Part shown: piece after piece, positions 25,929-41,051 of the stretch
How positions within the stretch are numbered: position 1 is the stretch's first letter
Layout of the letters: each line of letters starts with the position of its first letter
Notes under the pieces: generated by a model
Seen by the model: only the letters and a program-made list of their open reading frames with translations
Told to the model about the DNA's origin: nothing
Databases searched by the model: none
Sequence record: OZ346222.1
Strand: one strand, 5' to 3'
From: a phage
Length of the DNA: 64,000 nucleotides
Position numbers and translations under genes: made by a program

Positions 25929-25988
25929 TAAGATAATGACACGGGCCGGGAGGCCCACTAATCAGAACCACACAAAGAGGTAAACATC

Positions 25989-26252
25989 ATGAAACGTCTT
26001 GATCAGCTTAAACTAGTTCAGTACATGGCCTACAAAGTTCTTGAAGTCCAAAAAGGTAGCAAAAAAGAGGTTTGCGAGAAAGCGTACAAGATCTTTACCC
26101 GTAAAAAAGATGATTGGATGTTACGCCAGACCAAAAAAGCCGATATCTTGGGGTACCTGGAAGAAGAGATCCGACTTGAAGAGCAAGAAGAGATCCGCCG
26201 CAGTGAGGCAGATTATCAGGCAGCCTGGGAAAACTGGATGAGCAACAAATAA
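25989..26252 (+). CDS. hypothetical protein (87 aa)
   Basis: Conserved leader/RBS. Confidence 0.5.
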   Translation: MKRLDQLKLVQYMAYKVLEVQKGSKKEVCEKAYKIFTRKKDDWMLRQTKKADILGYLEEEIRLEEQEEIRRSEADYQAAWENWMSNK

Positions 26253-26319
26253 TACAACAAGTTGCACGATCAGGGGGCAATAAAGCCCCTTGATCACATA
26301 AAAATTATGCTATCCTTGG

Positions 26320-26348
26320 TTGACAAGGATCGGCAGTTTTGCTATATT
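26320..26348 (+). promoter_or_regulatory. sigma70-type promoter
   Basis: TTGACA, 17-bp spacer, TATATT. Confidence 0.5.
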
Positions 26349-26396
26349 CTTTTTGAAGGGAAGTTGTAAGAAAATTAACTAAGAGGTAAAAACACC

Positions 26397-26816
26397 ATGA
26401 ACATTAAATCTAATAATCCGGCATATAGCTTTGATAACGCTTTTTGTCACGGTCCGGCGGCGAAAGGATTCGAAATCGATGGTAAACTAATTATTGTCAA
26501 TGTTGACGGGGAAGAGGTTGCAGTATATCCGGTGGCAGACGTAAAAAGCCGTTTACAATGCCGCATGGATGTTACCGCCTATCAGCTTGATCCGGTCCGC
26601 ATAGTTGCCCTGGTCCTGGAAGAAGAAATTAAAGCCATGCACCATAGCAACAGATTTATTGGTGACGCGCAGGATAATATGAAAGTATGCCGCCATAAAG
26701 TTAATGAAGTGCTTAAAGAGTACGGCTATAAAGATCTTATGATCAAACGTGAGGAAAAATTCCGCTACCGTAACGACCTGGCAAATCGGATTTTTGAAAT
26801 ATACGAATCATTATAA
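26397..26816 (+). CDS. hypothetical protein (139 aa)
   Basis: RBS AAGAGG; last gene of rightward block. Confidence 0.5.
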   Translation: MNIKSNNPAYSFDNAFCHGPAAKGFEIDGKLIIVNVDGEEVAVYPVADVKSRLQCRMDVTAYQLDPVRIVALVLEEEIKAMHHSNRFIGDAQDNMKVCRHKVNEVLKEYGYKDLMIKREEKFRYRNDLANRIFEIYESL

Positions 26817-26834
26817 TTTTTTAACTGAATTATC

Positions 26835-26860
26835 AAGGGGCTTAGGCCCCTTTCTTTTTG
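26835..26860 (+). terminator. rho-independent terminator
   Basis: AAGGGGC-TTAG-GCCCCTT hairpin followed by TCTTTTT. Confidence 0.6.
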
Positions 26861-27477
26861 TCTGCTCTTCCCCCTACCATAAACGGCCCTACCTGGCAAG
26901 TGGAATAATTGACGAGCCATCAATCCCACACACTGTACAAATATACATGTAAAATAACTATTGCATAACCTTTCATTGTGTGGTAGCGGTGCTATTTTTT
27001 ACCTGTTTTCCTTCCAAAATTGCACGTAATGCAGCTATTGCACAAAATTTAACCTGATGCACATCTCCAATATCCTGTCAACAACTAAAAATCTTTATAA
27101 GTCATACACTTACACAGCATCGAAAGCGTGTTCTACGCGAAAAATCGAGTATAACTATAGCCGCCAGATCTCAGAATTCACGTACGCACGCCATTCTATA
27201 GCCTGCAAAGTATTTATTCCAACCACAGAATAACGGAATAGTCAATACCTGAATAAAATAATTATTCGTTTAAACTGCATAACATAAATCAGCTCAGGTG
27301 TCAACATTTTTCGTAAACAGTCTGAAATTGTCACTGTGAGTTATCATAAACAGAGAAATCTTTAGTCGTATAATGTTTACTGTACGTTACTATACTGACT
27401 GGAATCATTAGATGACTAATAGAAAGATAAGAAATAATTAACAATACAATTATTTTACCTGTAACAATAAGACAACT

Positions 27478-27726
27478 ATGCAAACGAATGGCATGGCGCG
27501 ACGGAGTCGCGACATAATATAAAAGCAGTAACCATCACCCCCGTGATGGTTTGTCTGCAATCTATTAATCAGATCATAGTTGCCTTGTATTCAGTTAATC
27601 ATGACATAATAAGCAAGGCAACTATAGATCTGCTAATAGTTGCCCTGCTTTTATATTATGTCATATATTATTAACTTGTTAATTGTTAACTTGCTAATTG
27701 TTTTCATGCAAACGAATGTCATGGCT
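27478..27726. repeat. palindrome-rich module flanked by 21-bp direct repeats
   Basis: ATGCAAACGAATG(G/T)CATGGC at 27478 and 27706; perfect 18-bp inverted repeat GACATAATATAAAAGCAG / CTGCTTTTATATTATGTC (27510/27645); 12-bp inverted repeat CATAGTTGCCTTG / CAAGGCAACTATG; several short hairpins. Confidence 0.75.
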
Positions 27727-27734
27727 TATCCTAT

Positions 27735-27805
27735 CTGTGTAAACAGTTAAGGTGTAAACTATCCAGGCGTAAACAGTCTATGCGGGAACAATCTATACGT
27801 GAACA
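27735..27805. repeat. iteron-like array of GT(A/G)AACAG octamers
   Basis: GTAAACAG / GTAAACTA / GTAAACAG / GTGAACAG spaced 10-20 bp; further copies near 27313, 28078, 28790. Confidence 0.6.
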
Positions 27806-28357
27806 GTGAAACATGAAATAATAACAGTCGTTATTGTGTCGAAAGTGTATAAGGTGTCAGACAAGTTTTTCTCCTCTTTGTCAAGTGCTGCATGAAAAAT
27901 TTACAAGCTTGTATGGTAGCATTTTTGCGGCCCTGTTTACATTCAGCGATGTATGTATAATCCTTGTTGTGTGGGCGTTTAGACGTCTAGACGGTCAGAA
28001 GTCTGCAGGTTAATACCTAATCTATCGGCTGCTAACTATATCCCACACAAATAGTAAGAAATATAATTGTTATGTGCGTAAACAGTAACTCATGTTATCA
28101 ATCCCTGTATGTATCGCCAGTGGTGCGCATAATGGGTATTATGTTAAATTGCCCGTAATGATAACTATTCTCACAATGATAGGTATTCTCATTCACTCCC
28201 ACAAGATAGGTTGCAAATGTTGTGCCACTGTGTGAACGGCCTAACCTATTAATTTGCCTCACTGCCTCGATATTTGAGAATTGTTATAAGAATGAGAAGT
28301 ATTCCCATTTCGTCCGCCTGGCAGCACTCCAGTCGCTACCGCTCATGACAGGGCAGA

Positions 28358-29610
28358 ACTAGACCCTCTTCAGATATTTCTGGCTGACTCTTCAGGTCTG
28401 TGTGGGAAAAGCCAACCTCTCCGGCGGCGGGGAGGGGGTCAATTAAAAAAAATTACGTGGTGCATGAAGCGCTCTTCAGGTAAGGCATGTGTTATGGGAT
28501 GAAACCCTCTTCAGGCAATGATATTTGTGGGTGTGATATTTGCTGGAAAGCCAGATATGACGGGACTCCTGGCGGGGCAGGGGTAGTACAGACAGGGAAA
28601 ATATGGGGGATGTAGTTGGGGAAATTGATCAGACAGGTAGAGTATGGAATATGTTACAAGTATGTTAAATAGGGAGGATGAATATCTGCAGGATTTGTGT
28701 GTAAAATCAAAGACTTAAGTGGTGTTGTGGTATTTTCTATAAATAATTCAAGTTTAATAGGTAATATTTGTCTCTATCCACTTTGTGTGGTAAACAGATT
28801 CAGATGAAATTGGTTTACAAGTGTATACATAATATACAAATTAAAGATACAAGAAACCCCCCTCCCCCTTCGGCTACCATTCACCTTTTCCTCTGACTGG
28901 TACTTAAACACTTATTCAGACTCTTCAGGTTATCACCCATATATCATATGGCAGTGACTGGTGTCCTCCGGCCCCTCTTTCGTCACCCGTCCGCTTCGCC
29001 ATGCTAATGCCATAGCCAATGGTTCGGTTGTTCACTCTGTTCACTCAGGTGTATCTCCATACCCCTTCAAACCGAAGAGAACAGAAAACCCGAATTACTC
29101 GGTAAAAGAAAAGAGAAGAACTTAATTTTATCAGGATAGGCAAGAATGTCAAGGCATGACTGCTCACTAAACAAGCAAACAGTCATGTGTGGAAGGTAAG
29201 TGATTGTGGTGGTGGGAAATTTAGTTGAAAGATGTGTTATAGGTGCGCTTCCAGCACTTTGGCCGGGCAGCTAATTGTGTGTCAGTCCAGCGGTTCATCC
29301 TCTACTTCACTGAAATCAATGTTCATGGTCTCCTCCCAACCATCGATCTCAGCACAAGAGTGGAGTTCTTTAGGGTTTACTCCCAAAGCCTCAGCAACAG
29401 AGTCTATATTTAACACCTCTGGCAGGTATGATTCATCGAATTCAAGGTAAATCAGGCCACGAGTGTTGTCAGCTCCACCAAATATCTCTATCTTCATGAA
29501 ATCTCCTCTGGAAATGAGAGTGTGAACAGGGTTTTATACGTTCTAATGCACAGGAATTATACACGTTTGCCTCTTCAGGCCATGCTTTAGCATGAGGAAC
29601 CTGTGTGGGC
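28358..29610. repeat. dispersed CTCTTCAG(G) motifs, often followed by TGTGTGGG
   Basis: Six copies on the same strand (about 28358, 28388, 28465, 28505, 28918, 29567) within a G/T-rich non-coding stretch. Confidence 0.6.
29282..29497 (-). CDS. hypothetical acidic protein (71 aa)
   Basis: Last gene of leftward block; begins MKIEI like several paralogs. Confidence 0.45.
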   Translation of the reverse strand: MKIEIFGGADNTRGLIYLEFDESYLPEVLNIDSVAEALGVNPKELHSCAEIDGWEETMNIDFSEVEDEPLD

Positions 29611-29618
29611 TCGGTGCT

Positions 29619-29831
29619 TCATAGTCTACCACCTCTGAACTCTTCGTGCTCAGGCATAATAGAGAACCAGATATCTACGATGTCCTCCCACGTCAGGTCA
29701 TCAGCCTCAGGATCTGTCTGGGACGAAGATGAAGAGTCCTCAGAATCTAAGTTTTCCTCTTTAACTGGCTCATCCAAGGGACATATGGTCACTCCTTCGG
29801 ATGTCTCTTCAGATGCATGTGTGTTGATCAT
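29619..29831 (-). CDS. hypothetical highly acidic protein (70 aa)
   Basis: Asp/Glu/Ser-rich. Confidence 0.4.
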   Translation of the reverse strand: MINTHASEETSEGVTICPLDEPVKEENLDSEDSSSSSQTDPEADDLTWEDIVDIWFSIMPEHEEFRGGRL

Positions 29832-30191
29832 GTTCCCCCCGTGAGTATTCCGGCAACAGCCGCTATGGAAGTAATGATCATCAGGATCACCACTAAAACT
29901 TCAGACAATGTTCTCATTGTGTATTCCATATTCTCCAAACTGTGTGTGGATACTATCACGGGAGCGGTAATGTGTCAACAGCAACGCCGCGAGGGTTTGG
30001 TTAAAATCCGAGCGTATGGTGATTTGGGTCAAAACGGACGTGCGTTCTCGCTACGCTCGAAAGAGAGACTTGTTTGTAGAAAGCTCTTAAACGCTCTGTA
30101 ACGAGATTATCTGTCCAAGGTATGCAATCGTGCACCAGATAAAGAAAAGGACGCCACAGAGCGTCCTAGGTGTCTTAAATTTGATATTTTG

Positions 30192-30491
30192 CTATACCCA
30201 TGAGGGCTTATCAAGGTTGGAGTAGCTGAAAGGTGTCAAAAGGTGACTGTCAAAATCCCTCAAACTATCCAAATCTTTTTCCTCGTCCTGACACCATCTG
30301 TGCCTACATTTATTGTTGTAGTGCATAGAATGCATAGCGTTCTGCAACTTAACAGGTACAAGTGATTCAGGAGTAGATAGTATTGTTGGGTATGCCAGAA
30401 TCACCTCAAACAGTGGAAACACATCGAAACTAAAGTCTATCTCTGCAGAGGTTGATGGCATATAGGAGTATTTAGCCGCCTTTGTAGACAT
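30192..30491 (-). CDS. hypothetical protein (99 aa)
   Basis: ATG after GAGGTGG; upstream stop overlaps RBS. Confidence 0.45.
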   Translation of the reverse strand: MSTKAAKYSYMPSTSAEIDFSFDVFPLFEVILAYPTILSTPESLVPVKLQNAMHSMHYNNKCRHRWCQDEEKDLDSLRDFDSHLLTPFSYSNLDKPSWV

Positions 30492-30499
30492 AATCCACC

Positions 30500-30673
30500 T
30501 CACACAGGTTTGATAATACCTTTACCGAATAATTCTTCGTATCTAATCTTATCCGGATCCCACTCTTGGATAATTTCGAAGACAATATCCAACCCAGGGA
30601 TAATCACTTCTCCAGTGTCAAGTTTGGCAAGAACAAAACCAGAAGGCTGAATGGTTTCCCAGTTGTGCTTCAT
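30500..30673 (-). CDS. hypothetical protein (57 aa), or 3' part of a frameshifted gene
   Basis: Open frame overlapping 30618..30827 by 56 nt in another frame. Confidence 0.3.
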   Translation of the reverse strand: MKHNWETIQPSGFVLAKLDTGEVIIPGLDIVFEIIQEWDPDKIRYEELFGKGIIKPV

Positions 30674-30827
30674 TGGAATAGAAGACCTCGAAAATATCGC
30701 CGACCTTTATCTGTTGATCAAGATGTTCAAGATTCTCTTTCATATAGACGCAGCGGATTTTTCGTGCAGGCCAGAGACCACCTGCATCACGTTCATTTAG
30801 CTCTTTTACAGTAATCGGTATACCCAT
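30618..30827 (-). CDS. hypothetical protein (69 aa), or 5' part of a frameshifted gene
   Basis: ATG after terminator/promoter region. Confidence 0.4.
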   Translation of the reverse strand: MGIPITVKELNERDAGGLWPARKIRCVYMKENLEHLDQQIKVGDIFEVFYSNEAQLGNHSAFWFCSCQT

Positions 30828-30848
30828 CTCAAATCTCCTTCATAGATA

Positions 30849-30880
30849 GTAAAAAGAGGGGCCCAAGCCCCCCTCTTTGT
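30849..30880 (-). terminator. rho-independent terminator (leftward)
   Basis: GC-rich hairpin (AAAGAGGGG ... CCCCTCTTT) followed by T-run on minus strand. Confidence 0.5.
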
Positions 30881-30882
30881 CA

Positions 30883-31188
30883 TTATTCTACAGAGCGTTT
30901 GAACAGAATGTCTGCCTCAGACATGTGCTCAACCTCTTCTTCGATTTTAGCGCGACGTTTTTCAGCCTCATAGCGAATATCGAACTCGGTAGCCACCAGA
31001 GATTTGATGAATTTAGGAGAATACAGGTGATCCTGCTTCTCAACGAGAATGATATCCTTAATGGCATCTTTCAGATCTTTAATCTGAAGTTGGAGTTCTA
31101 CCAGTTCTTCGATTGTTTTGCGAAGGCGATCACGCTCTGCAGTGTCAGAAGGAAGAGAGGTGAACAGTTCAACTTTAGATTTAGCCAT
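30883..31188 (-). CDS. hypothetical coiled-coil protein (101 aa)
   Basis: Heptad-like charged sequence. Confidence 0.45.
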   Translation of the reverse strand: MAKSKVELFTSLPSDTAERDRLRKTIEELVELQLQIKDLKDAIKDIILVEKQDHLYSPKFIKSLVATEFDIRYEAEKRRAKIEEEVEHMSEADILFKRSVE

Positions 31189-31216
31189 AGTAAGAGTCTC
31201 CTTATGTTGTTTTAAA

Positions 31217-31468
31217 TTAACGTTCTACAAAAATACCGTTCAGTTCAATAACCAGGAATTTCTGGTCTTCACTATCGTCTCGTGCCAGCACCTCACAGAC
31301 GTATCGGTCATCCCCATCATCATCGCAGTCAAATACAAGACTGAGGACTTTATCATGGTAAACCTTCGCCACTACCGCCTCGTAAGTATTGCCGATTGTG
31401 AATCCAAGATAATCTCCGATGCATTTGACAACAACATGGTCTCCAGCATTTAAGTCAATCTTCGTCAT
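31217..31468 (-). CDS. hypothetical protein (83 aa)
   Basis: ATG after AAGGAGCG; ORF-track start likely too far upstream. Confidence 0.45.
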   Translation of the reverse strand: MTKIDLNAGDHVVVKCIGDYLGFTIGNTYEAVVAKVYHDKVLSLVFDCDDDGDDRYVCEVLARDDSEDQKFLVIELNGIFVER

Positions 31469-31623
31469 TACTGCGCTCCTTGGGTAATAATACTGTATGT
31501 AAAACTTTAACCAGAGATGTGAATAACGCCCCAAAACACACCGATAGCGCTAAAACAGACAAGGCCATCATTAAAGCTTCAGTAAAATCAGTCATTCCTC
31601 ACCTCTTGTTAGTCACTGTACTA

Positions 31624-31887
31624 TCATTTATCCTTGTCGTCAAGAACTTTTTTAAATCTTTCAGGGATATCTCCCGTTCTTAGATAGTTCATGACCTCGC
31701 AAGGTTCCCACTTGAATTTCTTACAGAGCAGGGCGGCTGAGATTGTTTCATTGCGAAAAGAAAGGATATTAATATCCCACTCTGAGAACCCCAACTTCCG
31801 AAGGGTAGCTACAGAAATCCTCACCGCAACCCAGCAGCAAAAACATGCAACAAACGCCACTGCTACAACCCACATCAGGATGTTCAT
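31624..31887 (-). CDS. membrane-anchored protein (87 aa)
   Basis: N-terminal TM helix. Confidence 0.45.
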   Translation of the reverse strand: MNILMWVVAVAFVACFCCWVAVRISVATLRKLGFSEWDINILSFRNETISAALLCKKFKWEPCEVMNYLRTGDIPERFKKVLDDKDK

Positions 31888-31976
31888 ATAAGCACCTTAC
31901 TGAAATACAAGACACAGTGTTAAGGTTACTGACCAGCAAATAATTAACAGTGCCGTTGCAACCTTTGCAAGATTTA

Positions 31977-32264
31977 TCATAGTGCCTCTAAGATTTCATA
32001 TCCTTCGGGTCGGAATACAAGCCACTCCGTGGCTCCGTTTGGTCGATACGCTTTATACAGAACAACCTGGTCTCGGCACATGCACATGGCTACATAGTTT
32101 TCATCCACACCTGCAGCCTGCATTGCATCTTCTTCTCCGGCAACTGCTTTGCTTACAACTTCCTTGGTAGGCAGGTGTGCGATCAGCTCGTCACCATCAT
32201 TAATTCCAAAATGGCTGAGTTCGCCGTTGGTATCTTTAATCTTAATCTTAACCAGATCTTTCAT
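31977..32264 (-). CDS. hypothetical protein (95 aa)
   Basis: Stop/start overlap with neighbours. Confidence 0.45.
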   Translation of the reverse strand: MKDLVKIKIKDTNGELSHFGINDGDELIAHLPTKEVVSKAVAGEEDAMQAAGVDENYVAMCMCRDQVVLYKAYRPNGATEWLVFRPEGYEILEAL

Positions 32265-32593
32265 TAGTCTTCCCCCAGGTTCAAAGGTCCTAAGATTTCA
32301 TATGCCAGATTAGAAGTTACAAGAGGGTCTTCTGCGTCTTTAGTATTATACCACCCGTGAATAACCAGAGTCCCACTTTGTTTCATGTCCAACTGGAACT
32401 CTTCTGCCGTTTCCTCATCCAGCTCCAAGATTTCCATAAGGTATTTGATGTTAGGGAGGTATGCAGCTGTTACAGTCCCCTCTACCAGACCTTCAGGCCA
32501 ACCTACATCTGGATGACAAGTAGGAACCAGGTTGGTCAGCTTAATGGTGTACGCTTTTTCTGCACGAGCCTTCAGTAACGGGTCAATCTTCAT
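32264..32593 (-). CDS. hypothetical protein (109 aa)
   Basis: Stop/start overlap with neighbours. Confidence 0.45.
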   Translation of the reverse strand: MKIDPLLKARAEKAYTIKLTNLVPTCHPDVGWPEGLVEGTVTAAYLPNIKYLMEILELDEETAEEFQLDMKQSGTLVIHGWYNTKDAEDPLVTSNLAYEILGPLNLGED

Positions 32594-32943
32594 TATTCGT
32601 CCTCCTCTTCGGTACCTGCTTCCAGTAATAAGTTAAGAATATCTTCTGCACAAGGTTCATAGAACTCTTGGCCTTCATTATCGATGATTTTGTAGTCATC
32701 TCCACGAATAATCAGGGGATCACTATCAAAATTATCGAGACCTTTAACAACGACAACACGATCGATTGCCATCATTGTAAGAACTTTATCGACATCTTCC
32801 TCTGCTACACCATACTGCAGCAGAATGTCTTTGGTAGGAGGAACAGCATCCACCACAACGCCGTTACCAAAACCTTCTGGAAGTTTAGCTAAAATATCTT
32901 CCGGAACCACATTCACATCAAAACCGGTAATTTCTACTTTCAT
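32593..32943 (-). CDS. small acidic protein (116 aa), family B paralog
   Basis: MKVEITG N-terminus; acidic C-terminus. Confidence 0.5.
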   Translation of the reverse strand: MKVEITGFDVNVVPEDILAKLPEGFGNGVVVDAVPPTKDILLQYGVAEEDVDKVLTMMAIDRVVVVKGLDNFDSDPLIIRGDDYKIIDNEGQEFYEPCAEDILNLLLEAGTEEEDE

Positions 32944-33204
32944 TTACAGCACCTCTTCGTCAACTACTTCATAAAAATGGCCTGGGATTGCAATAGCGTT
33001 CTCACCTTCACCTACAAACACAGTTCCGTCAAGAATCAACATCATAAGAATTTCTGTAATATCCTCTTCCGGAACGTTGCCAAAACCTTTAATCAGCTCG
33101 TAGGTTGGAATATTTACCTCTAAGATGTCACCATCTTTAGAACGGAAATCAACACCGTCCTGAATCTCTGCCGTTTCAAGGTTTTTCAATTTAATCTTCA
33201 TCAA
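32944..33204 (-). CDS. small acidic protein (86 aa), family B paralog
   Basis: MKIKL N-terminus; ends FYEVVDEEVL. Confidence 0.5.
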   Translation of the reverse strand: MMKIKLKNLETAEIQDGVDFRSKDGDILEVNIPTYELIKGFGNVPEEDITEILMMLILDGTVFVGEGENAIAIPGHFYEVVDEEVL

Positions 33205-33280
33205 TCGGTCCCCTGTCTTGTTAAGATGAAGGTATTATTTCACACAGGGTTGGCGTTGTCAACACCTGTGTGCAAGAAAA

Positions 33281-33676
33281 TTACTGAAACAGTGCGGATA
33301 AATTACCTTCTGGTGGGAACTTATCTGCCAAAAACGGTGTTAGCACAGTAGCCTTCTGAAGATCTGGGGTCCACTCGTTGTTCAGAACATCCCAGTAGTA
33401 CGCAATGTTGCTGTGTGGGTGCCGCATTACGAACTTTTTCCCTTCGTAGTCATCTGAAACCTCTACAGAAGAAATAACAACAGAATCTTCAAGGGTTTCT
33501 TCATAGAAAGATCCACCTTCAAATTTCCAACGAGATGCAAGAGCCCCTGCCTTGAACGCTGCAGATAACGGACTGTCGGCAAGAACATACATTTCTTGCA
33601 CTCTGTCGCTGCGATCTTTGCTTCTTACGTTGTATACAGTATCTGAGCTATACTCAACACGGTATAGTCTTACCAT
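33281..33676 (-). CDS. hypothetical protein (131 aa), family C paralog
   Basis: Shares V..HP.S...YW...WTP...LTPFL pattern with 35482..35880. Confidence 0.5.
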   Translation of the reverse strand: MVRLYRVEYSSDTVYNVRSKDRSDRVQEMYVLADSPLSAAFKAGALASRWKFEGGSFYEETLEDSVVISSVEVSDDYEGKKFVMRHPHSNIAYYWDVLNNEWTPDLQKATVLTPFLADKFPPEGNLSALFQ

Positions 33677-34008
33677 TACCGCACCTCCTCAATAACTTCC
33701 ACATCTGAACCCACCACAAATGCAAAAGGACAGGTTTCATGAAAGACATCCGGATCTCCGCCAAGCTTGCTAACAATTTCTCCACCACTAATAAACACAA
33801 GCTCACCGATATTCATCAGATTGCTGAAATAGTATCCATAATGATTAAAGAATGCAGCAGGGTCAGGTAGACTAGTAGCCTCAAGTTCTACATCGGTTGA
33901 GATTACTTTCTTATCATAACCTCTCGCCTTCTGAGATGCAAGATCCGCAGAATCTTCAGGCGACCTGAGATGCACAGGAATTGTTTCACCAATAAAGCGT
34001 ACTTTCAT
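33676..34008 (-). CDS. small acidic protein (110 aa), family A-like paralog
   Basis: MKVRF start; ends VEVIEE; ORF-track start is an upstream TTG. Confidence 0.45.
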   Translation of the reverse strand: MKVRFIGETIPVHLRSPEDSADLASQKARGYDKKVISTDVELEATSLPDPAAFFNHYGYYFSNLMNIGELVFISGGEIVSKLGGDPDVFHETCPFAFVVGSDVEVIEEVR

Positions 34009-34012
34009 ATTA

Positions 34013-34276
34013 TCACCCAACAACCATAGCTTCAAAAGGGGTCATGAACGAATAAACGGCATCATCATCTGCTTCAGGGAATGCTCCCAAAGACTTCATG
34101 TCTGAGCCCTTGACAAATACAAGGTTTTGATCAAAAGCTTCTTGGGGATCAATCCGATACATATTTCGTAGAATATCGCTTACCTCCTCATCAAGAGGTG
34201 AGTATGCTGTGCACGTTTTTCCGATCAAGCTTTGAGAATCAGGGTATCCACCTGAAGTTTTAAAATAAACAATCAT
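34013..34276 (-). CDS. small acidic protein (87 aa), family A paralog
   Basis: GYPDSQSLIGK and VFVKGSDMKSLGAF align with 39795..40028. Confidence 0.5.
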   Translation of the reverse strand: MIVYFKTSGGYPDSQSLIGKTCTAYSPLDEEVSDILRNMYRIDPQEAFDQNLVFVKGSDMKSLGAFPEADDDAVYSFMTPFEAMVVG

Positions 34277-34366
34277 ATAGTATCACCTCTGGTAAGAGAT
34301 GGGATTCCTTTCCCACAAATAATTACAAACCTTCCTTATCGAGGAAGTATGCTAATCCAAGCAGGA

Positions 34367-34636
34367 TTATTCCTCTACAATCTCATACACATCAGGAGTT
34401 ACAATCAACTCTTCTCCGTTACCCGGTGCAATAAACACCACCAAACCTTCAGGTGTGTGCTTTTTAGCCATCTCGATAACATCTTCCCGCAGGGCTGGCT
34501 CCATCAGATCAAAACCTTCACCCAGGGCATCACGAACCACCTTCATATAGTCCACTGGTTGTGCTTCAACAATCATGCCTTCAACCAGACCACAATTTTT
34601 GTCTGCCAGCTCAGTTTTGAATAATTTAATTTTCAT
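34367..34636 (-). CDS. small acidic protein (89 aa), family B paralog
   Basis: MKIKLF N-terminus; ends VYEIVEE. Confidence 0.5.
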   Translation of the reverse strand: MKIKLFKTELADKNCGLVEGMIVEAQPVDYMKVVRDALGEGFDLMEPALREDVIEMAKKHTPEGLVVFIAPGNGEELIVTPDVYEIVEE

Positions 34637-34773
34637 TTAGAGGTCTCCTCAATTATTTGATATTAATAGCCGTAACCTAACACATTAACTACAACTGCGA
34701 TTGCAAACATAATTTCAAAGCATGCAATCTCTACATTTGGGACTAATTTCTTGATCACACCCATTGTAGCACC

Positions 34774-35091
34774 TCATTCTCTAAAGTCAATCTTTACTTT
34801 GCCTTTCCCCTTACCTTTCTTTCCACCGCATTTAGCCAGTTGACGTGCTGCAACATCTACCATACGGTCAGTTGCCTCGTAAGCATCACTGCCTTTAGCT
34901 TTGGCAATAACTTCTTTTCCAGAATTGTCAAAAATGAACGCCATAACTTCCTGGTGATCATTTTCAACTTTTACACTCACACGTGCATAGTTGGCAGAGG
35001 GATGCAAACGCTCCAGCTTAGACATTTTGTGGGAAATGAAAGACACCATACCTTCAGTGATTTCTACGTTGCCAGTGATTTCAATTTGCAT
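34774..35091 (-). CDS. hpf: ribosome hibernation promoting factor (HPF/YfiA family) homolog
   Basis: MQIEITGNVEITEGM ... RVSVKVEN ... AKAKGSDAYEATD ... RQLAK closely parallels E. coli HPF (MQLNITGNNVEITEAL ...); lysine-rich tail. Confidence 0.7.
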   Translation of the reverse strand: MQIEITGNVEITEGMVSFISHKMSKLERLHPSANYARVSVKVENDHQEVMAFIFDNSGKEVIAKAKGSDAYEATDRMVDVAARQLAKCGGKKGKGKGKVKIDFRE

Positions 35092-35173
35092 AACGTGTTC
35101 CTTTTAAAGAAGAGGGAACCAAACCCTCTTTGAAAACAATGATACTAAATCTGAAGCGTTGTGTCAACAGTTT

Positions 35174-35464
35174 TTACAGATTGTTGTCGATAGTTTTTAA
35201 AATATCCACAGCAAGATCTGCCATTTTTCGAACATACTCTGCAAACTCAACAGGATCCTTGATCAAAGAATTCACAGGGTCGTACCCTAGAGCGTTCAAA
35301 ATGGCTGCAGCATCTACAACCTTCTCATCATTTGCGAAGATCTCTCCATCAAACTTGTAGGTCCATTTTGAGTCAATCTTGGCAGGGAATGATTGGTCAA
35401 CGCTTGTTACACCATCCTTTTTAAACGCTCCGGTGTTATCAGTGTCTAGAACTAAATCCATCAT
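35174..35464 (-). CDS. hypothetical protein (96 aa)
   Basis: In leftward gene array. Confidence 0.45.
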   Translation of the reverse strand: MMDLVLDTDNTGAFKKDGVTSVDQSFPAKIDSKWTYKFDGEIFANDEKVVDAAAILNALGYDPVNSLIKDPVEFAEYVRKMADLAVDILKTIDNNL

Positions 35465-35481
35465 GTTAGTACCTCACCGTT

Positions 35482-35880
35482 TCAGTTTAGCTTTTCTTCA
35501 ACAACCCCATAGCTCGGGACAGAGTCAAGAGCTTTCTGGTTTAAAAGTGGTGTAGCAGAATCTGCAAACGGTGTCCAAGTTTTTGTTCTGGCGTTCCAGT
35601 AATGCTTCACTCTGGAATCTGGATGCACTATAACAAAAACTTTTTCACTTGTCAACACATTAATTTCTTCCACACCCCTGCTGATAATTTCTCCGTCATA
35701 TCCCCCGGTCTGGTATCCTTCGTACCAGGTTCTTGCATAGGCATAGCCAGCCTGCCAGCATGCAGCCTCCTCCGAGGTGGAGACTACGTAGAAGTCTTTC
35801 TCAAATTCTGGGATACGCCCTTGCTTTACGCTCCAAGCTCCGCGAATTTTCATTGTAACTTTGAATAGTTTATTTTTCAC
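35482..35880 (-). CDS. hypothetical protein (132 aa), family C paralog
   Basis: Paralog of 33281..33676. Confidence 0.5.
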   Translation of the reverse strand: MKNKLFKVTMKIRGAWSVKQGRIPEFEKDFYVVSTSEEAACWQAGYAYARTWYEGYQTGGYDGEIISRGVEEINVLTSEKVFVIVHPDSRVKHYWNARTKTWTPFADSATPLLNQKALDSVPSYGVVEEKLN

Positions 35881-35892
35881 AACGGTTACCCA

Positions 35893-36147
35893 TCACAGTT
35901 CTACAATATCTGCATCTGACCCTGCCCCAAAGGCATAATAGGACTCTTCCCCGAAATAATATTCCGGTGCACCAGCAGCGATCAGGTCTGATCCCAAAAT
36001 GAATACCACGTTGTGGCCTACATAGCTGTGATTTTGCCGCACAGGATCATCCCACGGCAACCCTTCGAAGTATACCGCAGGGACGACCTTTCCTTTCAGG
36101 AAGGATTGCCCCAAGTAGACGTTAGAATCAAGAATTTTAACCTTCAT
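35893..36147 (-). CDS. small acidic protein (84 aa), family A paralog
   Basis: MKVKILDS and DLIAAGA motifs. Confidence 0.5.
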   Translation of the reverse strand: MKVKILDSNVYLGQSFLKGKVVPAVYFEGLPWDDPVRQNHSYVGHNVVFILGSDLIAAGAPEYYFGEESYYAFGAGSDADIVEL

Positions 36148-36364
36148 GATCGTCCTCCACTATCTCTACATCCTCACCTAGGGCAAAGTTGTAGGTCCAC
36201 TGACTGTCAAAGCATTCCTGAGATGCACCAGCGGCAATAAGATCTGCCCCTTTTATTTTTAAAAGGTCAGGGTAATCTTCGTTAGGGACAGCAGTAAACA
36301 CTTTCCCTACTAAAGGCTCCTGACCAATATAGAAGCTTGAATCTAAAACTTTAACTTTCATCAA
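36137..36364 (-). CDS. small acidic protein (75 aa), family A paralog
   Basis: MKVKVLDS and DLIAAGA motifs; ends VEIVEDDHEG. Confidence 0.5.
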   Translation of the reverse strand: MMKVKVLDSSFYIGQEPLVGKVFTAVPNEDYPDLLKIKGADLIAAGASQECFDSQWTYNFALGEDVEIVEDDHEG

Positions 36365-36648
36365 CGGTCTCCATCAGGTGGTTGTGGGACGTAAACACTG
36401 TTACGAATATCGTCCGCAGTATAGTAATAAGTGTCTCCAACCCTATCTCTGGCTGCAATGTACTCTGCTATACCAATAAGTGCCATTGATTTGGTGGCGT
36501 ATCTTCCCCACTCGTTAGCTCCCCAGTAGAATTTAGACCAGTAGGGAATAATACCGAACAAATATACCTTTTGACGAACTTCCCAGTAAGTGCCTTTTCC
36601 GACAAGTTTAAACTCTACTTCACTACTGTTAATCTTTTTCATTATCAA
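36361..36648 (-). CDS. hypothetical protein (95 aa)
   Basis: Overlapping stop/start. Confidence 0.45.
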   Translation of the reverse strand: MIMKKINSSEVEFKLVGKGTYWEVRQKVYLFGIIPYWSKFYWGANEWGRYATKSMALIGIAEYIAARDRVGDTYYYTADDIRNSVYVPQPPDGDR

Positions 36649-36941
36649 TCTCCCTCTACCGTGGTCGGATTGTCAGTAAGAAATTGAGCATTGGCTGGAG
36701 GCACGCCTGACATTTTCCACACAACCATAAGTTTGTAACCAGGAACTCTATTAAGTGCAGATCGAGTAGAGTTTGTGCACGTATACTTTCGCTTTCCAAA
36801 CCCGTTCTCCATCATAATCCAGTACCCAGTATCTTTGTCACCAGGTATCGGTAGACCACCTTCATCAACCCACTGAATGGACCACGGCACGATGGCTACA
36901 GCTTTATATTTAAACTTTTTAAACCACTCAAAAAGTTTCAT
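36645..36941 (-). CDS. hypothetical protein (98 aa)
   Basis: Overlapping stop/start. Confidence 0.45.
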   Translation of the reverse strand: MKLFEWFKKFKYKAVAIVPWSIQWVDEGGLPIPGDKDTGYWIMMENGFGKRKYTCTNSTRSALNRVPGYKLMVVWKMSGVPPANAQFLTDNPTTVEGD

Positions 36942-37036
36942 AATTCAGCCTCGCATAGACATAATCACTATAAACAGGCAAACAATGAATCCGAATGCCA
37001 CGCCACCCATAAACGTTAATATTGATGCAATCATAG

Positions 37037-37234
37037 TCAATCAGCCTCGCTTGGCAACTCTTCTACCTTAACATGCCGAAAAGTGTTACCGTAATGGTTG
37101 ATCCATGACATCAGCTCGCTTTCTTGCTCTTCCTCTGGGATGAACTCTCGAATGCTGACAAGTTTTAAGAAAACCCAATCACAATCTGCACCCATTCTAC
37201 CAGACAGGCAATAGTGCTTCATAAAACCCCCCAC
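37037..37234 (-). CDS. hypothetical protein (65 aa)
   Basis: In gene array. Confidence 0.4.
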   Translation of the reverse strand: MGGFMKHYCLSGRMGADCDWVFLKLVSIREFIPEEEQESELMSWINHYGNTFRHVKVEELPSEAD

Positions 37235-37239
37235 CTGGT

Positions 37240-37434
37240 TTAGAATATTGCTTCTTCCATTGCACCTGAGAGCAACAAAGAGGTGATCTGGCTAACATTC
37301 ATCTCAGACTCTACTTCCTCCCCTTTGAAAGGTTCGCGGCAGAATAGGACTGTTTCAGGACTTTTACTTCGAACAATATAATACAAATCATTCAATGTGT
37401 TGTAGTAATAAGTGTTAAAACGTAAGTTTTTCAT
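37240..37434 (-). CDS. hypothetical protein (64 aa)
   Basis: In gene array. Confidence 0.4.
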   Translation of the reverse strand: MKNLRFNTYYYNTLNDLYYIVRSKSPETVLFCREPFKGEEVESEMNVSQITSLLLSGAMEEAIF

Positions 37435-37718
37435 TTTCTAGTCCCCTTCTTAGATTTTTGTGTAGAAACGCTTTCTGCAATACGAGACAAACGTTCTTCT
37501 GAAGCCTTGCCTATTCCAGGTTTTTTGAGTGGGTTATCTTTATGACCACAATCCAATTGGATATTGGATACCTCTCCAACCTTGTAAGTCAATTCTAGCA
37601 AAAGGTTGTCGTCCTTGTCAAATGTTCTTACGATAAATTTTTTATCGTTCTCCTGAACTTCGTATCGGGTACCCGCAGTATACAGCATGGTGCCATCCGC
37701 ATAGGATATCCAGATCAT
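37431..37718 (-). CDS. hypothetical basic protein (95 aa)
   Basis: Overlapping stop/start. Confidence 0.45.
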   Translation of the reverse strand: MIWISYADGTMLYTAGTRYEVQENDKKFIVRTFDKDDNLLLELTYKVGEVSNIQLDCGHKDNPLKKPGIGKASEERLSRIAESVSTQKSKKGTRK

Positions 37719-38062
37719 TGAACCTCCTTCTGCTGCAACAGCATTAACTCTTTGTTGGAGATTTTTACTGCTGTTTTTATTGTTCCATCTTCACGAAACC
37801 ACGACCAGAACTCTACAGTGTCACCACTATCAAGTAAAGCATGCCCATGGTAAAAATCTTTGTCCTTAGACAGTTTCTCATCTATATCTGCATCAACACA
37901 TTCGTGATCCATAGCATTTTGCCTGAACGCATCGGTTATGCCAATGCACGCCTTGCTCTCAAGACTGGTATATCCGATATCTTTTAATTCAGTTTCCCAA
38001 GTCCAGTACCCTATAAAAGCTAAAACAGCTACCCACAGTAATAACGTTTTAATCTTTGGCAT
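37715..38062 (-). CDS. membrane/secreted protein (115 aa)
   Basis: N-terminal hydrophobic helix LLLWVAVLAFIGYW. Confidence 0.45.
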   Translation of the reverse strand: MPKIKTLLLWVAVLAFIGYWTWETELKDIGYTSLESKACIGITDAFRQNAMDHECVDADIDEKLSKDKDFYHGHALLDSGDTVEFWSWFREDGTIKTAVKISNKELMLLQQKEVQ

Positions 38063-38124
38063 TCTCTCTACCTCTTTCTTAGTTTATTTCACTATGGCAC
38101 ATCCTTTGTGCCATATCTCAACTA

Positions 38125-38283
38125 CTACTTAAATAGTAGTTCAAAATAGTGCAAAATTAACAGAAGTTGAACTACACCTAGTGCAACGGCGAGTATGTTA
38201 ATCTTAGAATCGAAAAACTTCTTAACTTTTACTCTAAAAGGTTCCTTAATGTCCTTTACGATCCTATCTATAGATGACCTCAT
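38125..38283 (-). CDS. small C-terminally anchored membrane protein (about 52 aa)
   Basis: Internal ATG chosen to limit overlap with upstream gene; uncertain. Confidence 0.3.
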   Translation of the reverse strand: MRSSIDRIVKDIKEPFRVKVKKFFDSKINILAVALGVVQLLLILHYFELLFK

Positions 38284-38596
38284 ATCTCTGATTACCATCC
38301 TGAACATTAAAGACGGATGCTCCCCCCATCTCTGTAACGGAATCAAAAACATACTCTCTTCGGTCATAAGGGCCGCCAGCTCTGCGTATTAACCTCTCCA
38401 CAGAGACTTCGAACGTCACACCTGTAACGTAATCATCTATAACAAGTCGTGACGGGTCTTTACCTTTACTATCAAGAGGTATCAAAGTTATCTTTCCAGA
38501 TTTTGTTAAAATTTCCCCTTTTTCAAGCAAGGTGTACCAATGCTCTCTGCCAAGACTGTTGAGGCACGTTTTTACATATTTAACAAACATCGTCAC
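38264..38596 (-). CDS. hypothetical protein (110 aa)
   Basis: In gene array. Confidence 0.45.
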   Translation of the reverse strand: MTMFVKYVKTCLNSLGREHWYTLLEKGEILTKSGKITLIPLDSKGKDPSRLVIDDYVTGVTFEVSVERLIRRAGGPYDRREYVFDSVTEMGGASVFNVQDGNQRYEVIYR

Positions 38597-38796
38597 CCCT
38601 CATCGCACGTCTGATATAACCACTCTATAAAATCTTGATACCATTCGCCCTCTGAGCGCTCCGTAGGCCAATAATCTTCACCCTCTCGTGCATTAAAATC
38701 TGAGTATTCAACTTTCCACTCCTTTACCAGCTCGTGGAGAAGGTTTTCAGCCTGCTCTAAAGATTTATTTTTTACCATTGCTGTCTCCTTTTTCAA
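38593..38796 (-). CDS. hypothetical protein (67 aa)
   Basis: RBS AAGGAGACAGC. Confidence 0.45.
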   Translation of the reverse strand: MKKETAMVKNKSLEQAENLLHELVKEWKVEYSDFNAREGEDYWPTERSEGEWYQDFIEWLYQTCDEG

Positions 38797-38861
38797 GATA
38801 GTTATACATCAGAACTGCACCACCTAAGATGGCTACCAGTAACAATACCCCAGATAGCATC

Positions 38862-39014
38862 TCAATAAACATGGCTTGAAACACTGGAAGGCCTCCCTAA
38901 ATTAACGCACCATTTTAAATACATGCTCTTTTCCCATAAAGGTGCCTGGCTAAGATCTGCGTAGAACGCAATCTCTTTAAGAACAGTATAAACAGTTTTA
39001 GGTGCGGTCTCCAT
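38862..39014 (-). CDS. hypothetical small protein (about 50 aa)
   Basis: ATG after AAGGAGGGTAGGG; uncertain. Confidence 0.3.
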   Translation of the reverse strand: METAPKTVYTVLKEIAFYADLSQAPLWEKSMYLKWCVNLGRPSSVSSHVY

Positions 39015-39234
39015 CCCTACCCTCCTTTTTCTCCTTCCTGATATTCTTGTAGTAATCAACTAGGCACATTATTACGATGAAGATAACAACAGGCCAAAAA
39101 GGTGCAGCAGTGATGATGGTGATAAAATCATCAAACTTCACCCTTCGTCTGGACACGATGCATACACCTGTCAAGAATACCGCTGTTATAACGGACATTA
39201 CCAGGTAACCTATTAGCACAACATTTATACTCAT
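38998..39234 (-). CDS. membrane protein (78 aa, two TM helices)
   Basis: Hydrophobic segments; basic C-terminus. Confidence 0.45.
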   Translation of the reverse strand: MSINVVLIGYLVMSVITAVFLTGVCIVSRRRVKFDDFITIITAAPFWPVVIFIVIMCLVDYYKNIRKEKKEGRDGDRT

Positions 39235-39264
39235 TGGTCCTCCCTTTGTAGGTTAAATTGTATA

Positions 39265-39798
39265 CTACAAATGGTCGCTGAGGGTGTCAAGAAAATTATC
39301 CCGTTCTTTCTCAGAGTTTTCATGTGTGTAGCTGAAAAACATATCGAGAATAACCTTATTGATATATTCCAGCTCCTCTGTGTTCAGATGCTTAGCAGGA
39401 TCTACAATGACATCCCAAATATCATACAGACCACACTCATGATACCCATAACGCCACTCAATTGTCAAGCTGAGCGGCAAATCTTTACCTTCACAAACAA
39501 CCTTCCATCTACATATGTTGGTATCTGGTCGTACCTGTGCACGGTACACCTGCACAAAATCCAATTTGAATTTGAGGTACTCGTCATACAATTTAAGCAC
39601 AAAGCTCTCGATTTGTGGAGACACTTTTGCAGCAAACTGTGCGTATTTGTACTTGCACTGGATGATCTTTCTGCGTTTTGCAGTTAAATTTTTTGCCGCC
39701 AGTTGTTCTTCAGTGTATCTCCACCTACGATCAACAAACGCAACAGGGTCTTTGTCCCCATAGAGGTCTTCCCAGTTAATCAGAAGCATACCTGTCAC
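39265..39798 (-). CDS. hypothetical protein (177 aa)
   Basis: In gene array. Confidence 0.5.
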   Translation of the reverse strand: MTGMLLINWEDLYGDKDPVAFVDRRWRYTEEQLAAKNLTAKRRKIIQCKYKYAQFAAKVSPQIESFVLKLYDEYLKFKLDFVQVYRAQVRPDTNICRWKVVCEGKDLPLSLTIEWRYGYHECGLYDIWDVIVDPAKHLNTEELEYINKVILDMFFSYTHENSEKERDNFLDTLSDHL

Positions 39799-40028
39799 TC
39801 CTCCACAACTTCAAGGCCTTTACCGCCTCGCTCTGGCAGATTACTTAAAGATAGGTAATACATATAATCAGGAGAGATCCTGCCAGACTCTGCACCTGCA
39901 GCTAGTAAATCCTTCCCTTTAACCAGGACAACATTCTCGTTTGCAGATAGCCGTTTTGCTTCCACAATTTTACCAACACAGTCAACCAAGGAAGGGTACC
40001 CTAAATCTGTAAGAAATTTAACTTTCAT
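39795..40028 (-). CDS. small acidic protein (77 aa), family A paralog
   Basis: MKVKFLTD and DLLAAGA motifs; ends LEVVEE. Confidence 0.5.
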   Translation of the reverse strand: MKVKFLTDLGYPSLVDCVGKIVEAKRLSANENVVLVKGKDLLAAGAESGRISPDYMYYLSLSNLPERGGKGLEVVEE

Positions 40029-40065
40029 GCTACCTCCTACCTACCGTCCCTGGTAAGATAAATTA

Positions 40066-40464
40066 TTACTGAACAGAGCGCGGTGCTGGGAAGGATAACT
40101 CTTCTAAAGAGAAGATTTCATTTCCTACCACCCAAGTTGCTGGGTCATCTGGATCAACAGGTTGGATAATCATTACCTCATCCGCCTCGCACACACGTTT
40201 CCCACCCATAGTAGCGTCAGCCACTAACATACGCGGCTCTTCAGAAATGCACAGGTAGCCACCTCGGCCCACTGTTCCTTCCACGGGATCCTGCCCTTTG
40301 ACCACAATGAATACCTTCTCTCCTGTGGAGATATTACTTTTCACACTAACAGTTTGACCAACTTTAGATGTACCGATCTTGGTGGCTTCAAACATTAAAT
40401 CCCGAATTACTGTTGCATAGTTGCCGGACACTTTCTTACCTTCTTTAGTAATCTCAATCTTCAT
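40066..40464 (-). CDS. hypothetical protein (132 aa)
   Basis: Begins MKIEIT. Confidence 0.45.
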   Translation of the reverse strand: MKIEITKEGKKVSGNYATVIRDLMFEATKIGTSKVGQTVSVKSNISTGEKVFIVVKGQDPVEGTVGRGGYLCISEEPRMLVADATMGGKRVCEADEVMIIQPVDPDDPATWVVGNEIFSLEELSFPAPRSVQ

Positions 40465-40736
40465 AATCTAGGCTCCTTAAATGAATCTATGTAATCAATT
40501 AAATCCCAAGCATCGCGATGGGCTGTCAGAGGGTATACTTCTCCGAGAGGGATCATAGCAATAAGTCTATCAAAAACCCAGTCTGGACGCAACATTTTAT
40601 GGTGATATTCCCACTCACCTTCCACAGATTTTTTCTGAGTGATCAGGATCTCTGTGTAGTGTTTCGCCTGTCTTGAGTAGATTGAAAATGACTTGTACAT
40701 AAATGACCCCCTCTTGTTGAAAACAACAATACACAA
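40461..40736 (-). CDS. hypothetical protein (91 aa)
   Basis: Overlapping stop/start. Confidence 0.45.
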   Translation of the reverse strand: MCIVVFNKRGSFMYKSFSIYSRQAKHYTEILITQKKSVEGEWEYHHKMLRPDWVFDRLIAMIPLGEVYPLTAHRDAWDLIDYIDSFKEPRL

Positions 40737-41051
40737 CTACCAGGTTACTGTCAAGTAGGCAACCGTATTATTTTTCTCTGGGGAGATGCCAACAACATCT
40801 ACCTGCAGACCTCCTGCCCTTAAATCTCCAACAATGTGCGGGAAGTAATCTGAGAGATGCGAGGGTAGATTTATCGAAAATCCGCACCCCAGAAAGCCTG
40901 CTAACGCTTTATTTTGTATCTCCCCTACAATCGCATCATAAATGGAGTTAAGCTCGTCAGGGAGTGTTACAGGGCGTTTTAGCGCTAGCTGGTGTAATTT
41001 GTCCTTAGCACTCATTTTCATTTCAGGTCTACCTCTGGGGGTGCCAACCAC
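40737..41051 (-). CDS. hypothetical protein (104 aa)
   Basis: In gene array. Confidence 0.45.
   Translation of the reverse strand: MVGTPRGRPEMKMSAKDKLHQLALKRPVTLPDELNSIYDAIVGEIQNKALAGFLGCGFSINLPSHLSDYFPHIVGDLRAGGLQVDVVGISPEKNNTVAYLTVTW

Follow-up and report, generated by a model that had tools for sequence, protein, structure and literature searches.

The stretch of sequence record OZ346222.1 analysed here (64,000 nucleotides of phage DNA, hereafter the window) carries on its minus strand an array of about 42 small genes, and the question raised by this locus is what so many small genes standing side by side do for the phage. A preliminary description, made from the letters alone, had read the array as a leftward operon with three paralogous families of acidic proteins (A, B and C), of a kind typical of host-takeover or anti-defence arsenals. 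By nucleotide identity the window is that of an rV5-like coliphage (Vequintavirus), since the closest match of the 12.5 kb around the array was Escherichia phage JohannBauhin (Bas53, Vequintavirus), with 98.7% identity and 100% query coverage; 123 phage records were matched by the same query. Phages of this type rank with the coliphages of broad host range that are isolated most often, and they find use in therapy cocktails; about two thirds of their genes are without known function. In our analysis, 12 of the approximately 42 array genes collapsed into the three families, which turns an anonymous block into a short list of candidates for knock-out, and members of A and C were found in two A-A-C cassettes. 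Public data, in which this had passed without comment, visibly show a requirement for one cassette and both C genes on a uropathogenic strain of clinical origin. The best explanation, on which we consider the case for and against to be evenly balanced, is that this is an accessory array with the A-A-C cassettes as units that counter a host-specific barrier.

Paralogous families and A-A-C cassettes

Open reading frames (ORFs) are named by their high coordinate, for example g36364. In the ORF list, minus-strand ORFs of 44-177 amino acids (aa) formed an unbroken series from 41051 down to 29282, and at least 12 junctions in the array abutted or overlapped (for example 40461/40464, 39795/39798, 37715/37718, 36361/36364, 33676, 32593 and 32264). 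The counterpart stretch of JohannBauhin has 42 annotated coding sequences (CDS; bas53_0131-0172), all labelled 'hypothetical' save two, of which one is named as a ribosome hibernation factor and the other as 'putative glycosidase'. Both records bear out the run of about 40 tightly packed leftward genes that had been described, and each coordinate given for a gene in that description proved to be the low end of a real ORF. GC skew was negative throughout the array, matching the expectation for leftward coding. The array is flanked by an N6-adenine methyltransferase gene on one side and by a 2.5-kb non-coding terminal region on the other, and it is annotated in more than 100 genomes. In the rV5 genome paper (PMC3606486) this part of the genome is described as having '88 mainly small ORFs', next to a 2.6-kb stretch without ORFs, and paralogues are nowhere mentioned. 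Accessory or counter-defence gene sets of phages are an established class of system, and the gene block itself has long been known and annotated.

Paralogy was assessed by hhalign for all 780 pairs among 40 proteins of the region, with alignments of orthologues where these were present. The best eight pairs all fell within A or within C (E values of 5e-23 to 9e-6), and the median score and 99th percentile were 9.9 and 26.7, respectively. Family A was recovered with the five paralogues that had been proposed. Its members g36364 and g36147 matched each other with E values of 2.6e-14 by BLASTP and 5e-23 by hhalign, and g40028 matched g36364 with E values of 2.5e-6 and 4e-14, respectively, while g34035 and g34276 were tied to these core members by hhalign at 8e-7 to 9e-6. 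Leave-one-out profiles retrieved all five as the top match among the 676 ORFs of the window (E 1e-20 to 5e-6; 4.7e-6 for g34276 and 3.7e-6 for g34035). The two paralogues claimed for family C, g35880 and g33676, were likewise upheld (BLASTP E 4.5e-8; hhalign E 8.5e-8 over about 110 columns). For g35880 the GTG start at 35880 (132 aa) was preferred to the ATG at 35853 (123 aa) used in BASEL, because the N-terminus is conserved with that of the paralogue (KLFKV versus RLYRV) and the longer form is annotated in phage Gotham.

Family B was found to have five members of 85-116 aa, not the three originally listed, and its paralogy was supported by the leave-one-out profiles. Its hhalign pairs ranked 9th to 39th of 780 and were near-full-length, with E values of merely 5e-4 to 4e-2, and g33204 and g32943 matched by BLASTP at E 1e-3. 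With four-lineage profiles the E values were 2e-3 for g34636, 2e-7 for g33204, 5e-8 for g32943, 2e-4 for g32593 and 3e-5 for g32264; each was the top match among the window ORFs, and the next-best ORF was at 0.6-2. The B members were also the best non-member matches of the family A profiles, and a joint superfamily of A and B was considered, as both begin with MK[VI]K and end in Y-x-[IV]-[IV]-E; the profile-profile probability was only 7-19%, and the two were kept separate.

Searches of Pfam, NCBIfam and PDB sequences with the three families gave nothing above noise, so that none was assigned to a curated family. In PHROGs, phrog_5009 unites three A genes (g36364, E 1e-38; g40028, 8e-36; g36147, 5e-32) and phrog_7379 both C genes (g35880, E 1.5e-73; g33676, 2.4e-66; 131 of 131 profile positions in both), listed under 'unknown function'. 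In contrast to the grouping made here, the two divergent A genes and the five B genes stand there in separate single-lineage PHROGs (g34276 matched phrog_5009 at only 1.2e-4 and g34035 gave no match to that profile), and PHROGs hold no record of the extended families, the cassette order or a link to phenotype. Part of the paralogy was already implicit in that database; the full membership, the two cassettes, the fold and spread of A and the link to a phenotype are new.

In the direction of transcription, cassette 1 reads g36364(A)-g36147(A)-g35880(C). It is followed by two other genes and a short ORF, and then by g34636(B)-g34276(A)-g34035(A)-g33676(C)-g33204(B)-g32943(B)-g32593(B)-g32264(B), in which the A-A-C part is cassette 2. 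In both cassettes the C gene comes immediately after two adjacent A genes, which happened for both C genes at a frequency of approximately 6e-5 in random orderings of 42 genes; a run of at least four B genes had a P of about 0.002 in such orderings. When the cassettes were compared position by position with hhalign, the E value was 9e-6 for the first A genes, 8e-7 for the second A genes and 8.5e-8 for the C genes. These matches by position fit in part with the idea that a three-gene unit was duplicated.

The families are conserved within the genus. A tblastn search of 50,697 phage records found families A and C in 118-119 Vequintavirus records only, with each copy at 85-100% identity, and profile searches among 5.8 billion proteins returned 39 clusters only for A (almost all of them from contigs around 135 kb long), 53 for B and 6 for C. 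Pairwise ratios of nonsynonymous to synonymous substitution (dN/dS) between the window and phage ECP2309 were 0.07 for A, 0.09 for B, 0.09 for C and 0.17 for the other genes. Judged by these ratios, all families are under strong purifying selection and are real, constrained genes. The phrase 'locally expanded', in the sense of a recent arms-race expansion, did not hold, as identity among the paralogous copies is no more than 27-50%, yet each copy is conserved to 95% or more in the 118-119 genomes, and dN/dS is 0.07-0.09; judged from these comparisons, the paralogues are old, fixed duplicates.

The acidity ascribed to all three families applied to A and B, with isoelectric points (pI) of 4.05-5.4 (about 4.05-4.7 for B), and was mixed in C (7.8 and 4.9). 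The median pI was 4.87 for the array compared to 5.88 for the other long ORFs of the window. The five B proteins are very acidic, with net charges from -7 to -21 in the contiguous run of four, and in being small and strongly acidic they resemble the DNA mimics Ocr and ArdA. An assignment to the Ocr/ArdA-type DNA mimics was not supported by sequence: acidity was the only feature in common, and A, B and C had no match to Ocr (PF08684), ArdA (PF07275) or any other family in Pfam at E values up to 1, nor any among PDB sequences.

Table 1. Features of the array and their positions in the window
Feature	Coordinates	Strand	Remarks
Whole array, about 42 small genes	29282..41051	-	orthologues bas53_0131-0172 / bas54_0135-0169
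First array gene	40737..41021	-	bas54_0169; overlaps the methyltransferase gene
A, fifth, solitary, g40028, 77 aa	39795..40028	-	bas54_0166; phrog_5009
Presence/absence block, 6-7 small genes	36645..38596	-	in window and JohannBauhin; missing in Bas54/MaxBurger (1.95 kb)
A, cassette 1 first gene, g36364, 74 aa	36137..36361	-	bas54_0159; predicted SH3-like small beta-barrel
A, cassette 1 second gene, g36147, 84 aa	35893..36147	-	bas54_0158; phrog_5009; hhalign E 5e-23 to g36364
C, cassette 1 third gene, g35880, 132 aa, GTG start	35482..35880	-	bas54_0157; phrog_7379
Ribosome hibernation factor homologue (S30AE/HPF)	34774..35091	-	PF02482, E 1.8e-12, 48.3 bits (cut-off 23.7)
B, g34636, 89 aa	34367..34636	-	bas54_0153; just upstream of cassette 2; leave-one-out E 2e-3
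A (divergent), cassette 2 first gene, g34276, 87 aa	34013..34276	-	bas54_0152; hhalign E 3e-6 to 9e-6 to A
A (divergent, long insertion), cassette 2 second gene, g34035, 110 aa	33676..34008	-	bas54_0151; hhalign E 8e-7 to g36147
C, cassette 2 third gene, g33676, 131 aa	33281..33676	-	bas54_0150; phrog_7379
Predicted sigma-70-like promoter, TTGACA-17-AATAAT, extended -10	33234..33262	-	gap between cassette 2 and B run
Other predicted sigma-70-like promoters	35139-35167, 34763-34790, 37030-37057, 40726-40754, 29950-29978	-	consensus scan
B run, four contiguous genes	31977..33201	-	32944-33201, 32593-32943, 32264-32593, 31977-32264; leave-one-out E 5e-8 to 2e-4
Bidirectional GC-rich terminator-like hairpin	30853..30878	.	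inside array; ARNold terminator at matching place in Gotham
bas54_0140 orthologue (99% identity)	30192..30491	-	reported counter to DS-28; outside A, B and C
Second internal terminator-like hairpin	30148..30167	-	scan and Gotham prediction

Depletion of cassette-gene insertions on a clinical host

A 2025 preprint on HIDEN-SEQ (10.1101/2025.11.20.689424; Extended Data Table 8) reports transposon-insertion sequencing of Bas54, a near-identical phage that by its locus tags is MaxBurger, and the Bas54 genes were mapped to the window by BLASTP (95-100% identity). On E. coli K-12, bas54_0135-0168 were all classed there as Non-essential or Intermediate, and the array is dispensable on this host. The first array gene, bas54_0169, was nearly without insertions even on K-12 (mean count 1.8 compared to approximately 100-800 for its neighbours) and is possibly close to essential, in which it would differ from the other array genes. 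On the clinical strain CFE311, no reads were found over the 59 TA sites of bas54_0150, 0151 and 0152, which form cassette 2. The log2 fold changes on CFE311 versus K-12 were -6.77, -6.17 and -7.16 for these genes, respectively, and -2.14 for bas54_0157, the C gene of cassette 1; the adjusted p was reported as 0 for all four in the K-12 versus CFE311 resampling table. The B gene upstream of cassette 2, bas54_0153, had a log2 fold change of -2.78 that was not significant, and no B member was significantly depleted on CFE311. The text of the preprint is silent on 0150, 0151, 0152 and 0157. Sheets Data S6 (labelled CFE303) and S7 of the same table hold an identical K-12 versus CFE311 resampling, with the same command line and values, so that the depletion data cover one clinical host, CFE311.

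The preprint also reports that, to get past DS-28 (by prediction a CFE311 defence system), the phage requires bas54_0140 and a MoxR ATPase encoded elsewhere. The idea of a host-takeover or anti-defence arsenal gained from this gene, from dispensability on K-12 and from the depletion of four A and C members on CFE311; it did not extend to every family, as the bas54_0140 orthologue, the sole validated anti-defence gene, belongs to none of A, B and C and B showed no depletion.

We infer that each A-A-C cassette is a functional unit, from the order found twice, the depletion of all cassette 2 genes, the lack of polarity in cassette 1 and the habitual pairing of A domains. Under the preferred explanation, the array, dispensable on laboratory E. 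coli, would carry factors needed only on particular wild hosts. Working with C, the two A barrels would serve as a module for binding or as an adaptor. The cassette would neutralise a barrier specific to the host, of which the likeliest kind is an anti-phage defence, that is present in CFE311, for example, and absent in K-12. The three proteins would act together, with A acting by binding and a defence system as the target, and the B proteins may be further decoys or inhibitors. A bolder version, which we regard as speculative and improbable in its full detail, makes the cassette a three-protein counter-defence machine in which a heterodimeric A module recruits or regulates C to inactivate a defence of uropathogenic E. 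coli; the duplicates would give two specificities, and A would be a reusable 'paired-barrel' inhibitor scaffold that also occurs in moron slots of prophages.

Several observations weigh against the cassette as a counter-defence unit. The A genes bas54_0158, 0159 and 0166 and the B genes 0146-0149 were unaffected on CFE311. The depletion of three adjacent co-directional genes could reflect polarity on the last of them, C, and the partly depleted upstream 0153 fits a polarity gradient. Moreover, the requirement on CFE311 could stem from any difference between the hosts, not immunity, and the authors of the preprint made deletions of 0063 and 0140 only and cloned only DS-28 and Gao_Tmn among the CFE311 systems. 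The two A genes of cassette 1 are 50% identical to each other, far closer than to the A genes of cassette 2, and a simple one-step duplication of the triplet therefore finds no clean support. No A-C fusions, and no C- or B-like neighbours of A homologues in other phages, were found. An AlphaFold2 model of family C, built from a two-lineage alignment, had a predicted local distance difference test (pLDDT) score of 50.2 and was judged unusable. Finally, vequintaviruses were exceptionally susceptible to restriction-modification in the BASEL study (PMC8594841), and the acidic proteins are therefore unlikely to be general anti-restriction DNA mimics.

The polarity argument has its fullest form in the proposal that only C matters on CFE311, the depletion of A being polar, the role of A unrelated (for example nucleic-acid-binding or regulatory) and the adjacency historical. 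The three depleted genes are indeed tightly packed and co-directional with C last, upstream 0153 fits a gradient, both C paralogues but not the cassette 1 A genes were depleted, and outside the genus C is without an A-like partner and A is widespread without C. However, insertions in 0158 and 0159, the cassette 1 A genes, left fitness intact and did not phenocopy the depletion of the downstream 0157, in which insertions reduced fitness, and the authors of the preprint argue against general polarity, as insertions that lay upstream of essential genes had generally been tolerated. Both points argue against a purely polar origin of the cassette 2 depletion, and the A-A-C order found twice (P about 6e-5) also speaks against the proposal. 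We regard the C-only proposal, whose polarity on C is the chief alternative to a working cassette, as unlikely.

That the array is inert filler, made of selfish, hitch-hiking or mis-called ORFs that contribute nothing to fitness, was largely refuted by the selection and insertion data and is very improbable. It would agree with the non-essential classification on K-12, the absence of a 1.95-kb block from Bas54 and the frameshifts in two genes of the window, but not with dN/dS of 0.07-0.17, paralogues conserved across about 119 genomes, the strong depletion of several genes on CFE311 or the confident fold prediction for family A.

The array resembles the accessory and anti-defence small-gene clusters of large virulent phages, such as the early regions of T4 and other T-even phages probed in the same HIDEN-SEQ study, which are likewise dense in small genes of unknown function, have host-type promoters and are dispensable in the laboratory host, and in which single genes turn essential against particular defence systems, as bas54_0140 does against DS-28. 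Unlike those clusters, it has a third of its genes in three internal paralogous families and contains the two A-A-C cassettes. Its families have no sequence relationship to the named T4 anti-defence proteins (none by Pfam, NCBIfam or PHROG function).

Predicted fold and distribution of family A

The preliminary description had held that none of the families has an obvious known fold. By prediction this does not hold for family A, for which a confident structure model of g36364, built from a 36-sequence alignment, gave a pLDDT of 90.8 and a predicted template modelling score (pTM) of 0.79, with five strands and one short helix. The helix lies between strands 3 and 4 and carries a conserved G-x-D-L-I-x-A-G-A motif. 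In a Foldseek search of the PDB nothing was significant (best E 0.27), and the best matches were of the SH3/KOW-like class; among predicted viral structures only uncharacterised small phage proteins were matched, including in BFVD an orthologue of g34276 at a TM score of 0.81, which supports independently the placement of that gene in A. On these models family A is likely an SH3/KOW-like small beta-barrel, an acidic domain of approximately 70 residues. It differs from the known SH3-like barrels (SH3, KOW of Spt5-NusG, PsaE and ribosomal L24) in the motif-bearing helix between strands 3 and 4, and its identity to them was only 4-26%, so that the likeness is one of fold class rather than evidence of homology; it suggests a module for binding and implies no particular ligand.

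Searched exhaustively with HMMER, the family A profile yielded 86 representatives at the 50% level, most of them proteins of 63-80 aa that stand alone. In five proteins (P0099, P0100, P0128, P0151 and P0160) a single chain has two or three A domains, one distant homologue was a fusion with DUF3310, and an unrelated podophage-like contig (L006) carried two A genes in tandem with overlapping stop and start. With at least 86 sequence clusters at 50% identity, the A domain is a candidate for a building block that recurs among phage accessory proteins. In lambdoid prophages of E. coli, a 75-aa homologue (P0030, 309 member sequences) lies between the Q antiterminator gene (PF03589) and the holin gene, among consecutive small ORFs of unknown function. 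This slot is a classic position of accessory cargo and in that resembles the array; it differs in that the phages are temperate and carry one A copy with no C or B partner. By what is established for lambda, genes in this slot would be expressed late, from pR', and not from early host-type promoters.

Transcription signals, genome end and other genes

A consensus scan of the array found 46 promoter-like sites compared to 33.6 +/- 5.7 in shuffled sequences. Six sites agreed with the consensus at 11 of 12 positions; all were on the coding strand and four lay in intergenic gaps. Terminator-like sites numbered 22 compared to 11.6 +/- 3.2 in shuffles and included two strong hairpins. In the record of phage Gotham, seven PhagePromoter promoters and two internal ARNold terminators are found at corresponding places. 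The label 'leftward operon' could not be kept: with about seven predicted promoters and two predicted internal terminators on the coding strand, the array is, by these predictions, multi-promoter and not one operon. Several host-type (sigma-70-like) promoters would accordingly drive it. No transcriptome of a Vequintavirus was found in the literature, and the timing of expression is inferred.

The 459-bp terminal repeat of Gotham maps to 27832-28290 of the window, which places the array next to the physical end of the genome and has it read toward that end. In the preferred explanation, it would be the terminal accessory-gene set of an rV5-like coliphage, read leftward toward this end.

Host-type predicted promoters and a place beside the genome end also characterize the early takeover regions of T5 and T7, and both features fit another proposal, in which the array holds general host-takeover genes that early in infection bind or redirect RNA polymerase, the ribosome, the nucleoid or proteases, the need on CFE311 arising from differences in target alleles or physiology. 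A ribosome hibernation factor homologue and a gene of the PHROG class 'transcriptional regulator' lie in the array, ClpP-like and PhoH-like genes are adjacent to it, and nucleic acids or the machinery of transcription and translation are frequent binding partners of SH3/KOW-like barrels. Set against this, factors that target conserved core machinery would not usually be fully dispensable, as these genes are on K-12, one array gene is already paired with a specific defence system (DS-28), and the phenotype is strain-specific. We consider general takeover rather unlikely as the main role, and the counter-defence explanation is retained.

Across the genome end, the window has 2.5 kb without genes between divergent gene blocks (approximately 26760-29280), where the terminus of the genome and signals for packaging or replication probably lie. 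The equivalent stretch of Bas54 had zero transposon insertions (10.1101/2025.11.20.689424). Dense inverted repeats were found at 27430-27690, with a perfect 18-nt pair at 27511-27528 and 27645-27662, and a strong sigma-70-like site at 29152-29125 on the minus strand points into the gene-free region. On its far side, the orthologues of bas54_0132-0134 (window approximately 25700-26760, plus strand) had log2 fold changes on CFE311 of -4.3, -5.2 and -2.9, all significant.

In a Pfam scan of the array genes outside the families, only the ribosome hibernation factor homologue was a real match, spanning profile positions 1-83 of 88. The gene g31188 matched the 'transcriptional regulator' phrog_639 (E 1e-21) and had no Pfam helix-turn-helix match, with only a weak GapR-like one (E 0.04); on a check for an Acr-Aca-type locus, it was separated from the A, B and C families by other genes. 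The 174-aa gene at 39265-39798, directly downstream of the solitary A gene g40028, is labelled 'putative glycosidase' in BASEL; it had no Pfam match and belongs to phrog_13467 of unknown function, and the label was not used. An Rfam search of the array returned no RNA family.

The block of small genes at 36645-38596 shows presence/absence variation within the array. Within it, a run of seven C residues at 38319-38325 (six in ECP2309) splits the orthologue of bas53_0163 (151 aa; 38125-38596; PHROG label 'virion structural protein') into 38264-38596 and 38125-38367, and is likely a homopolymer sequencing or slippage error. At 30669-30671, a net +1 (TT versus G in JohannBauhin and MaxBurger) outside any homopolymer splits the orthologue of bas53_0137 (108 aa) into 30618-30827 and 30500-30673, and this gene is possibly a genuine pseudogene in this isolate.

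Elsewhere in the window, a group I catalytic intron was found at 6468-6703 on the plus strand (Rfam RF00028, 64.7 bits, E 4e-14, full-length model), beginning at the end of an 809-aa ORF (4054-6483). Among the database records, 18 'Campylobacter phage' entries (MG0656xx, host Campylobacter jejuni) were 95-98% identical to the array region, which probably reflects mislabelling or contamination.

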